In this document: positions 2,737 through 21,537 of the stretch, one piece after another
Numbering within the stretch: position 1 is the first letter of the stretch
Layout of the letters: each line of letters begins with the position of its first letter
Source of the DNA: a virus
Length of the DNA stretch: 40,311 nt
UHGV virus genome: UHGV-1329780
Direction: 5' to 3' (one strand)
Position numbers and translations under genes: made by a program
The notes under the pieces: generated by a model
What the model was told of the DNA's origin: nothing
What the model saw: only the letters and a program-made list of their open reading frames with translations
The model's database searches: none

Positions 2737-3200
2737 TATTTTCTCTCCATGTGAAATCTGTGGAAATTAAGACCAAGAGCACCATAAGGCGCGGCTTCTT
2801 CAAGCCTGAATCCAAGCCAGTGCAGCCATGCTTTGGCAACATGGTTTCGCTCGTCGACGTAGTTTTCCAGGCGCGGATAAACTGCCAGCATCTGCTGCAA
2901 TACAGGGCGGCAGTGGCGAAGAAATGTCTTCTGATATTTTTCAATACGGCTGGTTCCTACCAGCCAGGGCGTACCATTGCCACCGATCATTGACGCCGGA
3001 GATACGCCAAACATGGTTACCAGTTCTCCGTTCGCAAATCCTGACCAGGCCATAGTCGCAGTACGCAGACCAACACGCAGCGCATCTTCGGTAGTCATCA
3101 GTGATACCGCATACAGTTCGTCAATATCAGCCTGACGAACATCCGGCAAAATCATCTGAAGATGCTCTTCGGTTGCGGGAATAATTTGAACATCAATCAT
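2736..3200 (-). CDS. Virion/assembly protein of unknown function
   Basis: 154 aa; start codon overlaps the stop of the 823-aa gene (translational coupling) inside the structural operon. Confidence 0.4.
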   Translation of the reverse strand: MIDVQIIPATEEHLQMILPDVRQADIDELYAVSLMTTEDALRVGLRTATMAWSGFANGELVTMFGVSPASMIGGNGTPWLVGTSRIEKYQKTFLRHCRPVLQQMLAVYPRLENYVDERNHVAKAWLHWLGFRLEEAAPYGALGLNFHRFHMERK

Positions 3201-9480: not shown

Positions 9481-11156
9481 TGTGATTGCCCACCCTGACC
9501 ACTAACTGCATTCGCCATAGCTGACAAAACACTCGGATCCGAAGTTTTAGCTTCGCTTAGCGTCTTGGCACCCTGTGCCGCCGCCATCCCCATCGCCATC
9601 ATTTGTTGCTGCTGTTGTTGCTGTGCCCGTTGCTGGCGAGCCTGCTCAACCTGTTCCTGCGGAACAATGACGGTTGGAGACACTCCGGACATATCAGCGA
9701 ATGCATCGATCGCCTGATCAACGTTGAGTTTGTCGAGAGCTTCTGGTTTCGCTTGCGCAAGTTGACCAATGAAGTTAACCGTGGACGCCAGACTGGACAG
9801 GCCGATAGACTTCTGCGCCTGAGCCATGACAGAAATGTATTCGACCTTCAGGGGCATACCTTCCATCGCGTCAGGCGGTGGCGGCAGCATGTTTTTACGC
9901 ACCATCATCGAGAAAGCGCGGTCAATGAGAGGATTAAGACATTCGTCGTTCAGACGCTCCAGAACCGGCCCCAACATCAGAAGTTTTTCTTCTTTCATTT
10001 CGATCACCGCTTCAACAGGCATCGAGCGGGTATTGATGTTCTGCAACATCATGAACAGATCGACAAAGTAGGCGCTGTTAATGATTTGGCGGGTGTCCTG
10101 AATGTCTGCTACCAGATCTGCTGTACTGGGGTTAACCAGATAAGCAGGCCTGAAACCATCCTGACCAGTAATCTGATCGATATACGTGATGTCGCCAGGA
10201 AGAAGGGAGGCGCGCTGATTCTTGAGGGAAGTCGGAGCAACCATCGGCGGATTGGTGGCTTTATCAATCAACTGCGACTTGCGCTTCTGGAGAAGCTGCA
10301 ATGCCTTAACAGGTCCAAGCGCCAGCATACCCGGGCATGATGATCCATAAACATCTTCGCCGTTAACTTCCCAGCGCGGAGCCATAATTGGAAACTCATC
10401 GAATCCGGACTCACGCAACAACTTGTCGTTATCGCCACCAACCTCGTAATAAACCGATTTGAATGGCTTGTTCTTGCTATCCAGCTTCGATGTATCGCGG
10501 TCAATGTTCGGGTAAACCGAATGCATCACTTCAATCCACTTCTCGTAGGTGCCGCTTTCCCACATGCTTTTTACGGATTCGCTGACGTTATTTAGCCCGA
10601 ACTCCTGAACAAGCTGACGAACAGTCATAGAGAACTTGCGGAAACAGGTGTCCACACTGCCACGAGGTGAGTTAGCCAGGTAGTAACTGCCTATCGGGAA
10701 TGGCATTGTGCGAATGATGTCCTCGTCATCCTCCAGCACCGCCATTGCACCAGTGCTGTATGTGCCGAGGCTTCCGTATAACTGCGGAAGAGACTGGTAG
10801 AGATTCGACTTATTGAACATATCGTTCATGCGGTTCTGCACCGCCTCAAGCCACAACTTAACAGGGCCATAATCCATCATTTCAGGATCTGGCGTAGCCA
10901 GGCGAAACCACGGACGCGCGGGGCTTGTGATGCCTGACATCATGCCGCTGGCGAGAGTGCGCGCCGCCATAGTCCCGGTCGAATCAATAATGCGTGTATT
11001 GCGTCGATCGTTACGGTTGACCTCAGAAGTCAGAAAGCGGGAACCACGCGGGTTGATGTAATCACTCAACTCGCGCCAGTGCGGCTCGAACGACTGACGC
11101 TCGCTTTCAAGTTGTGCGAACTGTTTGTTCAATCGCTCTTTAGTTGTTTCCGCCAT
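9477..11156 (-). CDS. Portal (head-to-tail connector) protein, T7 gp8-like
   Basis: 559 aa; GGAG RBS; the Gln/Met/Ala-rich C-terminal tail (QARQQRAQQQQQQQMMAMGMAAAQGA...) resembles the T7 gp8 C-terminus; follows the terminase genes. Confidence 0.7.
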   Translation of the reverse strand: MAETTKERLNKQFAQLESERQSFEPHWRELSDYINPRGSRFLTSEVNRNDRRNTRIIDSTGTMAARTLASGMMSGITSPARPWFRLATPDPEMMDYGPVKLWLEAVQNRMNDMFNKSNLYQSLPQLYGSLGTYSTGAMAVLEDDEDIIRTMPFPIGSYYLANSPRGSVDTCFRKFSMTVRQLVQEFGLNNVSESVKSMWESGTYEKWIEVMHSVYPNIDRDTSKLDSKNKPFKSVYYEVGGDNDKLLRESGFDEFPIMAPRWEVNGEDVYGSSCPGMLALGPVKALQLLQKRKSQLIDKATNPPMVAPTSLKNQRASLLPGDITYIDQITGQDGFRPAYLVNPSTADLVADIQDTRQIINSAYFVDLFMMLQNINTRSMPVEAVIEMKEEKLLMLGPVLERLNDECLNPLIDRAFSMMVRKNMLPPPPDAMEGMPLKVEYISVMAQAQKSIGLSSLASTVNFIGQLAQAKPEALDKLNVDQAIDAFADMSGVSPTVIVPQEQVEQARQQRAQQQQQQQMMAMGMAAAQGAKTLSEAKTSDPSVLSAMANAVSGQGGQSQ

Positions 11157-11170
11157 TTCAATGACTCCGG

Positions 11171-11377
11171 TTACTGACCAAGCAGCGTTTTACCGCTGGT
11201 ATTAGCGGTTGATGTGTCGCCCTGAGAACCGGTAAGCAGCGTAGAACTACGACCAGCAGCAGCGCGACGGCGACGAGTTTCTTCGTCGCGGGCATCAACA
11301 ACGGCGGCATCCTGCTCCTGTGGTGCTGCCTGAACTTCTGGTGTTGCAGGCACTGATGGTGAGCTACCCATGCACAT
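11171..11377 (-). CDS. Small Pro/Ala/Arg-rich hypothetical protein upstream of portal
   Basis: 68 aa; its start context CGGAGTCATTGATATG is nearly identical to the portal start context CGGAGTCATTGAAATG. Confidence 0.3.
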   Translation of the reverse strand: MCMGSSPSVPATPEVQAAPQEQDAAVVDARDEETRRRRAAAGRSSTLLTGSQGDTSTANTSGKTLLGQ

Positions 11378-11445
11378 ATCAATGACTCCGTACGCAATTA
11401 AATTATTACCAATTTAACCACATATGATTTATTTATCGTAGATAG

Positions 11446-11482
11446 TTGACATTTAACGCACTAATTATTACCTTTCAGGTAA
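11446..11482 (+). promoter_or_regulatory. Candidate promoter (-35 TTGACA) with TTACC-N5-GGTAA dyad over the -10 region, upstream of the tRNA cassette
   Basis: TTGACA at 11446-11451; dyad TTACCTTTCAGGTAA at 11468-11482; AT-rich context. Confidence 0.4.
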
Positions 11483-11804
11483 GCAAAGAGTTCATTCCGG
11501 TTATTAACCTGACTGGCTTGTCGTTAAATTGAACAGGTGGGGTGAGCTTTTATTTTGAGCAGTACGGTGTATGGCACATGCGCCGATAGCGGTCTGGATA
11601 CGTTTAAGGGGCACCCTCCCTTGCTCGGGCAAACGAACCAGGTAGCCGGAATGTGCAAGTCGAGCGGTTTTATTCCGCGCACGTGGATTCACCATCCCGG
11701 CGATTCGGTGTGACACCTCGGAAGAGACGAGGGTGCAACGATGAGAGCATTTATGGAGCCGCGACAAAGTGTGGTGCCTTAACAGGCTAAGTGCTCTCAG
11801 CGTT

Positions 11805-11881
11805 GTGGCATTAGCTCAGTTGGACAGAGCAACCGCCTTCTAAGCGGTTGGTCGCAGGTTCGAATCCTGCATGCCGCGCCA
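11805..11881 (+). tRNA. tRNA-Arg (anticodon TCT, reads AGA)
   Basis: Hand-folded cloverleaf: acceptor GTGGCAT/ATGCCGC (one G-U pair), D stem GCTC/GAGC with A20 in the D loop, anticodon stem ACCGC/GCGGT, loop CTTCTAA giving anticodon TCT, T stem GCAGG/CCTGC with TTCGAAT loop, discriminator G and encoded CCA. Confidence 0.9.
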
Positions 11882-12103
11882 GAATCACGCCTAAGGACCG
11901 TGATGCCAGAAGTTCCAGGGGCTTGGCGGTGATGGTTTCCCTTGAAGGACTATCACCGCCCTTTTTACAGCAGGACGCCATTGCGATGACTTCATGCTGT
12001 AAACCCGTACAGCCACGGAAGGCATAACTCATTGCTTCCAGTTCGCCCGGTTCGCCGGGCATTTTTTTGCTTGATGACCGCAAATTACCTTAAAGGTATA
12101 ATC

Positions 12104-12922
12104 ATGAAAAACTTCAAGGTAATTAGCATGTTTGAATCGTTCAAAGAGCTGTTTTTATCTACTGCCAATACTGCCGTGAATCGAGCCAAAAACCCTGTGC
12201 TTGGTGCTTTTGTTATGTCCTGGTGCGCCTTCAACTGGAAATCAATTCTTTATCTATTTTTTAGCAAATCAAACATAATAGATAAAATTTCATATATCTC
12301 AGATAACAGCACATGGAAAACTGTTATGTTTTATCCATGCTTATCTGTAATTGCTATCTGCTGCCTATTACCATGGGTAAACAATATCATTAACGTATGG
12401 CAAGCAAAGCCTCTTGATAATAATGACTCAATCGAAAATCACCTGAAGGCAAGAAAAATCCAGCGTGAAACCAGACTGCAGAGGTTATTAGCTAAAAAAG
12501 ATGTTACATACGACAAAGTTAAGACTGGCGCGGAAAAAGACATCCAAGAGATGAAAGAAGAGATTATTCGATCAAAGAATAGTATGGGGGAATTGACTGC
12601 CGAGTTGAAAGCTAAAGATGACGAATTGAGATCCGCCAGTGCTCAGTTAGCAGCTCTAAATCATTCATTAAAAGAGATATCGGAAACTCTGGGAAGAATG
12701 AATGAGGCATATAAGACCCTCCAAAATGATTTCGACGAATACAAACTCAAATACCCTGAAAAATCTCAAATAAAAAGCCTTGCACTTGGCAACGGCCAAA
12801 CAATTAGCAACTTTTTGGAGCAACACAACTTATCCGGATTAAAATCTGGTAAGCCAGACGTTTTTCATAACTTTGGTGTTCTATCTGGATTATCAGGTTT
12901 CGAGGATAAAAATAAAGACTAA
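12104..12922 (+). CDS. AT-rich moron protein: two predicted transmembrane helices plus C-terminal coiled coil (candidate superinfection exclusion / abortive infection protein)
   Basis: About 272 aa from ATG 12104 (alternative ATG 12128); hydrophobic segments PVLGAFVMSWCAFNW and VMFYPCLSVIAICCLLPWV followed by a Lys/Glu/Leu-rich heptad region; AT-rich with 5 of 8 Arg codons AGA/AGG and several ATA codons; opposite strand to the flanking late genes. Confidence 0.6.
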   Translation: MKNFKVISMFESFKELFLSTANTAVNRAKNPVLGAFVMSWCAFNWKSILYLFFSKSNIIDKISYISDNSTWKTVMFYPCLSVIAICCLLPWVNNIINVWQAKPLDNNDSIENHLKARKIQRETRLQRLLAKKDVTYDKVKTGAEKDIQEMKEEIIRSKNSMGELTAELKAKDDELRSASAQLAALNHSLKEISETLGRMNEAYKTLQNDFDEYKLKYPEKSQIKSLALGNGQTISNFLEQHNLSGLKSGKPDVFHNFGVLSGLSGFEDKNKD

Positions 12923-21474: not shown

Positions 21475-21537
21475 TCACCCATAAGGTAACAAAAATCAAG
21501 GATAGTTACCTATGAGGTGCATTTACCTGTTGGGTAA
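21475..21537. promoter_or_regulatory. oR-like operator cluster: three TTACC-N5-GGTAA-type dyads in the divergent intergenic region
   Basis: 21475-21489 TCACCCATAAGGTAA (variant), 21506-21520 TTACCTATGAGGTGC (variant), 21523-21537 TTACCTGTTGGGTAA (full), between the minus-strand cro-like gene and the plus-strand repressor gene. Confidence 0.55.

Follow-up and report, generated by a model that had tools for sequence, protein, structure and literature searches.

A new family of pseudoknotted structured RNAs transcribed first from repressor-controlled early promoters of temperate phages

We describe here a structured RNA encoded by the virus genome UHGV-1329780, a stretch of 40,311 nucleotides (nt) that was analysed at its full length and is referred to below as the window. 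Segment 11565-11805 of its plus strand is a member of a new, strongly conserved family of structured RNAs, and the RNA is the first product of a repressor-controlled early promoter. The window represents a phiV10/epsilon15-like (Uetakevirus) temperate phage, being 98.5% identical to phiV10 over 11380-12100 by blastn, and the RNA locus is placed between the divergent minus-strand gp3/portal genes and a gene for a transfer RNA (tRNA), tRNA-Arg(UCU). The initial annotation of this DNA had singled out 11483-11804 as a segment lying between a promoter and the tRNA that could form a structured RNA, and these borders were confirmed, with the promoter at 11446-11474 and the tRNA at 11805-11881.

The conserved core of the RNA comprises 168 nt (11565-11732, plus strand). 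It was delimited from an alignment of 85 non-redundant homologues, the window included (alignment A2), together with pair counts, coordinate mapping and a covariance model (R1) trained on the 85 sequences, the helices being derived by eye and with RNAalifold. The core begins with helix P1 (11565-11572 paired with 11578-11585), which encloses the loop GGCAC, followed by helix P2 (11590-11597 paired with 11638-11641 and 11645-11648), which has a GUA bulge and a variable insert. Beyond these lie a hypervariable hairpin, P3 (about 11659-11683), and the helices P4 (11684-11687 with 11695-11698, loop UCACC) and P5 (11716-11720 with 11728-11732, loop GAAGAGA). Two pseudoknots complete the structure. 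In PK1, the GCAC of the helix P1 loop (11574-11577) would pair with GUGC (11653-11656) inside the invariant segment GCCGGAAUGUGCAAG, and in PK2 positions 11690-11693, in the P4 loop UCACC, pair with GGUG (11707-11710).

Over the 34 pairs of this structure, 93.9% of the 2879 cells in the 85 sequences hold standard base pairs, compared with 26-44% when the 3' partners are slid. Double-sided compensatory changes were found in 18 of the 34 pairs (137 cells), and none of 500 shuffles reached any of the observed measures. Such changes are present in helix P1, P2b, P4, PK2 and P5; the PK2 variants, for example, include UGGUC/GACCA in locus L104 and AACC/GGUU in the lambdoid phage cdtI. Since the abundant G-U pairs (frequent at 14:24, 11:27, 37:101, 143:157 and 146:154) would be A-C mismatches on the opposite strand, the structure must be formed by the plus strand. 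Computational folding, one of the checks proposed with the initial annotation, gave the same picture, the plus strand folding better than its shuffles (z = -2.83) and the minus strand not (z = -1.1). Because PK1 and the CGGU/GCCG part of P2 are both invariant, these pairings are only predicted. Two other candidates were rejected: a closing helix between the 5' flank and the sequence after P5, for which helix lengths were no better than with shuffled partners, and an RNAalifold alternative in which columns 10-12 pair with 115-117 in place of helix P1, which showed no double-sided changes where helix P1 has them.

Alignment A2 contains about 38 invariant and about 47 near-invariant positions in the core, including a 15-nt invariant single-strand/pseudoknot segment. 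The window has all the parts that define the family, namely helix P1, P2, P4, PK2 and P5 together with the invariant blocks UGGCACAUG, AGCGG and GCCGGAAUGUGCAAG. Its score against model R1 (147.5 bits, E = 1.8e-46) is high by construction, since the window was itself used for training; blastn identities of 73-83% to the lambdoid, phage P1 and Klebsiella phage copies support its membership independently.

The base pairs by which the RNA had first been recognized were different ones. An exact 8-nt complement does exist, between GCACCCTC at 11611-11618 and GAGGGTGC at 11729-11736, 2-3 nt from where it had been placed, but as evidence it is at chance level, since a mean of 0.66 exact 8-nt complements per 322 nt was obtained by simulation. 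Its 5' half lies in a lineage-specific P2 insert, P2 having a quite different and much shorter form in 81 of the 85 homologues, and its 3' half takes in the P5 3' arm (CGAGG, 11728-11732), the covarying partner of which is the nearer CCUCG at 11716-11720. The long-range pairing is therefore not a conserved structure. Likewise, the suggested stem between CGGAAT (11647-11652, in the invariant GCCGGAAUGUGCAAG) and ATTCCG (11672-11677) is not conserved because the latter sits in the hypervariable P3 hairpin. The third proposal, TTGC-TCGG-GCAA at 11621-11632, is a plausible local hairpin within the P2 insert, but one common only to cdtI-type relatives and, more loosely, phage P1. Thus the idea of a structured RNA ahead of the tRNA was upheld, by covariation among homologous phages and by the conserved tRNA or tRNA-like junction described below, and the RNA is probably processed, but the pairs offered for it were due to chance or to lineage, the conserved plus-strand structure being built from other pairings.

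The family is unrelated to known RNA families by the available tests and is previously undescribed. A search of window positions 10900-12400 with the 4227 covariance models of Rfam 15 at E ≤ 10, as the initial annotation had recommended, returned only tRNA matches and no family in 11483-11804. Neither did Rfam 15 match the element in six homologous loci at E ≤ 5 or in 15 more at the gathering score. ARAGORN called no tRNA or transfer-messenger RNA (tmRNA) in the element in the window or in 129 homologous loci, the sole tRNA of the window being that at 11805-11881, and no Rfam tmRNA model matched the element. In the literature searched we found no description of it, although one may exist elsewhere, and in RefSeq/GenBank the element is either blank or overlaid with hypothetical proteins. 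The anti-small RNAs AgvB and AsxR were considered and set aside, as they lie at pR', which is another locus.

The core is followed by a 3' domain, P6 (11736-11805, plus strand), a long hairpin of the form CAACG...CGUUG with a hypervariable tip, the last G of which is G1 of the tRNA. The 18 basal pairs of P6, examined in 44 distinct arm pairs, are 91.7% paired compared with 34-43% when slid, with double-sided changes in 13 of the 18. Folds of 60 distinct homologous hairpins had a total length of 70-135 nt, the tip sometimes bearing T-loop-like hairpins, and in some members the helix sequences are wholly different (e.g. GAUGACUUUCU/GGAGAGAGUCAUC). The end of P6 reads GUUG|UGG, and this P6/GUGG junction is kept whether a tRNA or a tRNA-like element follows.

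In the window the junction leads into tRNA-Arg (anticodon UCU; 11805-11881, plus strand; called by ARAGORN, Rfam tRNA score 69.4 bits). The link to a tRNA is not universal, as tRNA-Arg stands at the junction in only 15 of the 129 loci, the window among them, and the element also occurs at the lambdoid pL promoter and in the phage P1 ban operon. In most other loci the junction starts a non-canonical tRNA-like element of 66-141 nt that is called by neither ARAGORN nor Rfam (directly after P6 in L003, L007, L009, L011, L032, L038, L061, L099, L111 and others). This element has an acceptor-type helix GUGGUG/CACCAC with an ACCA- or AACC-type tail, and a 5' hairpin loop GGCUGAU that is complementary to the 3' loop AUCAGC, with one compensatory variant, GCUAAU/AUUAGC; some copies have canonical T-arms and sometimes D-arms too. 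Several of the tails contain CACAACA, the consensus of GcvB targets (PMC4104026). A small hairpin, AUCACG-N9-CGUGAU (11884-11904 in the window, plus strand), is conserved downstream, after 7 of 12 tRNA versions and 21 of 30 tRNA-like versions. Since the same hairpin follows both, the tRNA and the tRNA-like element are interchangeable in a single slot. A T-box-like mechanism, in which the invariant UGGC would read the 3' end of the tRNA, was rejected, as inspection revealed no covariation between UGGC and the discriminator base, be it that of the tRNA or of the tRNA-like element.

Homologues of the RNA were found by blastn in 87 phage records. Identity is about 82% over 11564-11804 in the lambdoid phages cdtI and mEp460, the Stx2c and Stx2a converting phages and the PhiR series, and about 80% over 11564-11726 in phages P1, P7, D6, SJ46 and RCS47. 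For the 3' half (about 11641-11751), identities of 72-87% extend to Uetakeviruses of Salmonella, Klebsiella and Enterobacter, as well as to two phages deposited under the name of Stenotrophomonas phages. Among complete E. coli genomes, 1837 of 5426 contain the RNA, at 1918 chromosomal places and 553 on plasmids, and among the matches listed 39 of 40 had no annotation over the E. coli copy, the remaining one having a hypothetical protein. It was also found in 591 plasmids, 549 of them non-mobilizable, and a 23-base pattern recovered at least 120 IMG/VR contigs. In species-representative genomes it occurs on 21 contigs from about 15 species, all of the Enterobacterales except one short contig of a metagenome-assembled genome. 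That contig (L146, JAIIAN010000430.1, 1753 bp, labelled Bacillota) holds a full-length copy scoring 192.7 bits and is probably mis-binned, since every other genomic match is in the Enterobacterales.

The genomic settings of the 129 loci show how the RNA is expressed. In 73 it lies about 160 nt downstream of a CI-type repressor gene (helix-turn-helix with Peptidase_S24, or helix-turn-helix only) on the same strand; in 48 it lies between the portal and large terminase genes, as in the window; the other eight are in other contexts or on truncated contigs. In cdtI the stop codon of cI is followed by a terminator and then by the promoter TTGACA-16-CATAAT, which has TGTACCcttgaGATACA between its hexamers, the same operator as the three in OR. 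Since there is no further operator downstream, this is the only operator-bearing leftward promoter and must be pL, and the RNA, which starts about 35 nt after the inferred pL start, is its first product. The same logic of arrangement is seen in locus L006. The phage P1 copy belongs to the ban operon, which is under C1 control and contains a dicF-like region and two tRNAs besides tRNA-Ile2; the element begins 15 nt beyond tRNA-Ile2, and ban follows it at a distance of about 100 nt. In phage SopranoGao the unit follows the lysis genes, and a promoter-like TTGCAA/TATATT is found 8 nt upstream of helix P1.

In the window the early promoter, of the sigma-70 type, and its operator occupy 11446-11482 of the plus strand, with a -35 hexamer TTGACA (11446-11451), a -10 hexamer TACCTT (11469-11474) and the palindromic operator TTACCTTTCAGGTAA (11468-11482) overlapping the latter. 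When up to two mismatches are allowed, the window contains 16 copies of the palindrome TTACCT-N3-AGGTAA, compared with 0.87 expected, and 0 of 100 shuffles reach 16. Copies lie at 1931, 11468, 12085, 15005, 19174, 19236, 21475-21537, 22235, 22297, 27551, 33154, 33534, 34601 and 37222, among them sites that precede a Bro-N antirepressor-like gene or overlap the promoter (12074-12102) of the next open reading frame (ORF). This dispersed operator suggests phage P1-like control of many early promoters by a single repressor. In the epsilon15 record, a 'repressor' binding site is annotated in the same intergenic region, just downstream of gp3. Furthermore, TTGACA/TACCTT or a near variant (TTGACC, TTGGCA) is the top promoter match upstream of most of the listed homologues in Uetakevirus context. 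Between the inferred transcription start at about 11481 and the core lies a 5' leader (11483-11564, plus strand) that is outside the family-wide core and, from 11517 on, is common only to Uetakevirus relatives. In other members, the cI-context loci included, 4-165 nt separate the -10 hexamer or promoter match from helix P1, which in some begins 7-8 nt after the -10.

Downstream of the core an intrinsic terminator was found in all 47 Uetakevirus-context loci and in at least 37 of 70 cI-context loci, 100-400 nt beyond the core; the phage P1 copy has no strong terminator downstream. In the window the first terminator (11925-11966, plus strand) is a 14-bp stem followed by CTTTTT. It is followed by a module resembling the host small RNA (sRNA) RyhB (12014-12068, plus strand), which contains the seed UUGCUUCCAGU at 12032-12042 and a second intrinsic terminator at 12045-12060 with a U-run. 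The Rfam match to RyhB is weak (18.1 bits against a gathering score of 55, E = 2.6). Of 47 Uetakevirus loci, 18 have the 11-nt seed after the core, and 1.04 Mb of flanking sequence contains it just once elsewhere. The module may be a phage mimic of the host iron-response sRNA. In cI-context loci the modules carry a block, AAUUGCUGUGUGUAGUCUU, identical to RprA. The RprA block UGYGUKUAGUC together with a terminator was found within 900 nt after the core in 50 of 68 such loci and nowhere else in the flanks, and L006 has a full-length RprA match at 2631-2750 (50.2 bits against a gathering score of 70). The modules are thus like the host sRNAs in the seed-plus-terminator part, with scores below the Rfam gathering thresholds. 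Since the core RNA is followed by tRNA-Arg and then by sRNA look-alikes with terminators, 11446-12068 appears to be an operon of RNAs only.

How might this RNA act? We tentatively propose, with somewhat less than even confidence, that an RNA comprising the leader, the core and P6 is released by ribonuclease P (RNase P) and acts in trans on a host factor in an accessory early function. RNase P would cut at G1 of the tRNA or tRNA-like element (11804/11805 in the window), so that the tRNA-Arg slot would direct processing, making 11804 the 3'-terminal nucleotide of the structured RNA and freeing a discrete RNA of about 320 nt, while the downstream sRNA would end at its own terminator. The freed core would then bind a host macromolecule, either protein or RNA, through its invariant loops and pseudoknots during early lytic growth, in a role of host takeover or counter-defence. 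In favour of processing, the P6/GUGG junction and the downstream hairpin are conserved around either filler of the slot. The accessory nature of the function is suggested by the presence of one copy per phage and by epsilon15 (L001, AY150271), in which only a 40-bit remnant is left (1806-1907), essentially the helix P1 hairpin region; since no more than this remains, the RNA must be dispensable there.

Release by cleavage at a tRNA has precedents. In tRNA punctuation, and in the MALAT1-mascRNA system, an RNase P cut at a tRNA-like structure frees the upstream RNA, and our element is similar in that its 3' hairpin is directly followed by a tRNA, or by a tRNA-like element that has an acceptor stem and a tail of the ACCA type, the flanks being conserved in both cases; it differs in belonging to a bacterial phage and in that cleavage is here predicted. 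The stable RNAs C and D of phage T4 (species 1 and 2) lie in the tRNA gene cluster, are co-transcribed with the tRNAs and are matured by the tRNA-processing machinery. They are likewise phage-encoded RNAs linked to tRNA, but T4 is virulent, whereas the RNA described here is larger and is found in temperate phages under repressor control. As in tmRNA, pseudoknots and a tRNA-like element with an acceptor and T-arm are combined in one transcript, but the parts are arranged in another order, a tag reading frame is missing and the tRNA-like element has a length of only 66-141 nt.

Several points weigh against action in trans. We infer both the RNase P cleavage and the trans action from the anatomy of the unit. 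PK1, one of the pseudoknots through which the RNA would bind, gained no support from targeted IMG/VR scans for covariation, which yielded nine variant contigs, one type being G-U compatible and the others mismatches, none of them compensatory. The location of the unit in lambdoid phages is precisely that of nutL and putL, and is at least equally compatible with a role in cis. Downstream genes invariably have the same orientation as the RNA, and in cdtI the early-left genes must be read through the terminator of the unit, since there is no other operator-bearing promoter.

The alternative to which these points lead is that the RNA is a cis-acting, RNA-only processive antiterminator or anti-pausing element, the nascent core binding RNA polymerase and allowing read-through of terminators into the early genes. 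We consider this unlikely, but it is the most serious rival of the trans model. The HK022 put RNA, which measures about 70 nt and consists of two stem-loops with a single unpaired base between them, is found at both pL and pR and can antiterminate by itself (PMC9378689). The new RNA resembles put in being an RNA-only element that is transcribed first from a repressor-controlled pL, with terminators downstream (between the RNA and the early-left genes in the cI-context loci counted above) and no obvious N gene at the position, the interval from pL to the terminator having no ORF for an N-like factor. The 73 loci just downstream of a cI-type gene and the single operator-bearing leftward promoter of cdtI are as this model would have them, and co-orientation is also kept mid-operon, upstream of ban in phage P1. 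The last arrangement recalls the eps-associated RNA (EAR) of Bacillus, a structured, pseudoknot-containing processive-antitermination RNA that can sit mid-operon. EAR shares the pseudoknots, but no Rfam model matches our element, and EAR belongs to other taxa and has another architecture.

The differences from put are considerable. The fold is unlike two stem-loops, as the 168-nt core has four covarying helices and two pseudoknots, with P6 in addition, and is thus beyond put in both size and stem-loop composition. HK022 has both putL and putR, whereas model R1 found exactly one copy per locus, even in loci spanning cro and cII, and no second divergent copy analogous to putR was found with it in these loci. 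The put RNA acts in cis via the zinc-binding domain of the RNA polymerase beta' subunit. The new RNA also occurs in phage P1 and Uetakeviruses, where antitermination would have no obvious target. In phage P1 there is no strong terminator to overcome. In the window the unit is a stand-alone one from promoter to terminator; the next ORF has its own promoter (12074-12102), and read-through would run antisense into the convergent terminase gene. In epsilon15 the core is lost, yet the terminator and the downstream ORF are kept. Finally, the downstream sRNA modules need the terminators for their 3' ends. The observations on phage P1, the window, epsilon15 and the sRNA modules favour action in trans.

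A purely passive leader, the structure of which only protects the transcript or guides nucleases for the maturation of the downstream tRNA or sRNA, would explain the physical linkage to tRNA, tRNA-like element or sRNA modules, and 'RNaseIII mRNA processing' is annotated over the RNA remnant in the epsilon15 record. However, such a leader would not keep the 15-nt invariant segment and some 85 near-invariant positions across lambdoid, P1-like and Uetakevirus phages, and phage P1 retains the core with no downstream cargo, so that we regard this explanation as improbable. We judge it highly improbable that the core is a riboswitch-like aptamer for a metabolite or other signal, with P6 or the tRNA junction as the platform that gates processing or read-through. 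The compact pseudoknotted fold, the wealth of invariant and near-invariant positions, the location in a 5' leader and the terminator that follows in most loci would suit a sensor, but no Rfam riboswitch model matches, and the items downstream are inconsistent (tRNA, tRNA-like element, RprA-like module, RyhB-like module, ban). Furthermore, 100-400 nt lie between the core and the terminators, a stretch that includes P6, itself stable and covarying independently. Mutually exclusive pairings were not found, and the phage P1 copy has no platform at all.

That the conservation stems from a minus-strand protein, a degenerate tRNA or chance complementarity has next to no probability, and these readings are excluded, even though an 87-amino acid (aa) ORF exists on the minus strand (11504-11767), 60 of the 85 homologues are open in some minus frame, and hypothetical proteins are annotated over the element in GenBank. 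The initial annotation had seen no credible ORF in 11483-11804, and we agree: among the 85 homologues the frame is not conserved, codon periodicity is not consistent, and neither a conserved reading frame nor third-codon-position variation was found for the minus-strand ORF. Core lengths fall into all three classes modulo 3 (37/27/21), as do those of the P2 insert and P3, a 1-nt indel occurs inside a conserved stretch, and variation is compensatory within helices rather than at third codon positions. The suggestion of a degenerate tRNA found no support, as both ARAGORN and the Rfam tRNA model were negative in 11483-11804 and the fold is no cloverleaf, and chance is countered by the shuffles, none of which reached the observed covariation. 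The coding sequences laid over the RNA in GenBank (mEp460_037 on the minus strand, Tyrion BI095_gp54 on the RNA strand, others in Ayreon, PhiR63_1 and further records) are likely to be spurious.

A large, conserved, pseudoknotted RNA has thus been left unannotated at a much-studied site, just downstream of pL in lambdoid prophages, and the same RNA has gone unnoticed in the phage P1 ban operon, in Stx2-converting phages and in about one third of complete E. coli genomes. It is possible, though on balance doubtful, that the core is a new RNA-only effector made upon prophage induction, either a polymerase modifier like put and EAR with a different, double-pseudoknot fold or a decoy or inhibitor acting in trans on a host protein, and that it heads an all-RNA operon in which tRNA or tRNA-like punctuation is combined with mimics of RprA and RyhB that rewire the Hfq network. 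As a modifier of RNA polymerase it would represent a second and unrelated route to antitermination by RNA alone, and as a trans-acting molecule it would be a new effector RNA of phages. With either function, it defines an early operon composed entirely of RNAs, in which tRNA-like elements punctuate processing and host sRNAs are mimicked. Testable hypotheses follow as to the reprogramming of the host by temperate phages during the first minutes of induction, and the spurious 'hypothetical protein' annotations over the element can be removed.

Some further features were noted near the RNA. In L006, a hairpin-type motif, GG(G)AAAGAC(C), is repeated at least seven times on the two sides of the unit, in the leader (2379-2441) and between the terminator and the first ORF (2818-3055). 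The repeats, which neither cdtI nor the window was seen to have, resemble the P5 loop GGAAGAGAC and could serve as an array of protein-binding sites. In cdtI (L002), a C4 antisense RNA (68.4 bits) and isrK (60 bits) lie at 277-465 on the minus strand, within the pR operon and ahead of the antirepressor. They form a module like that of phage P1 immI, in the same lambdoid phages that have the new RNA in common with phage P1. In the window, the ORF at 12104-12922 (plus strand, 272 aa), which is transcribed from its own operator-bearing promoter at 12074-12102, is convergent with the large terminase gene and overlaps its end. The N-terminal part of its product is hydrophobic and the remainder looks like a coiled coil, with no Pfam match, and it is possibly a moron of the exclusion or abortive-infection type.

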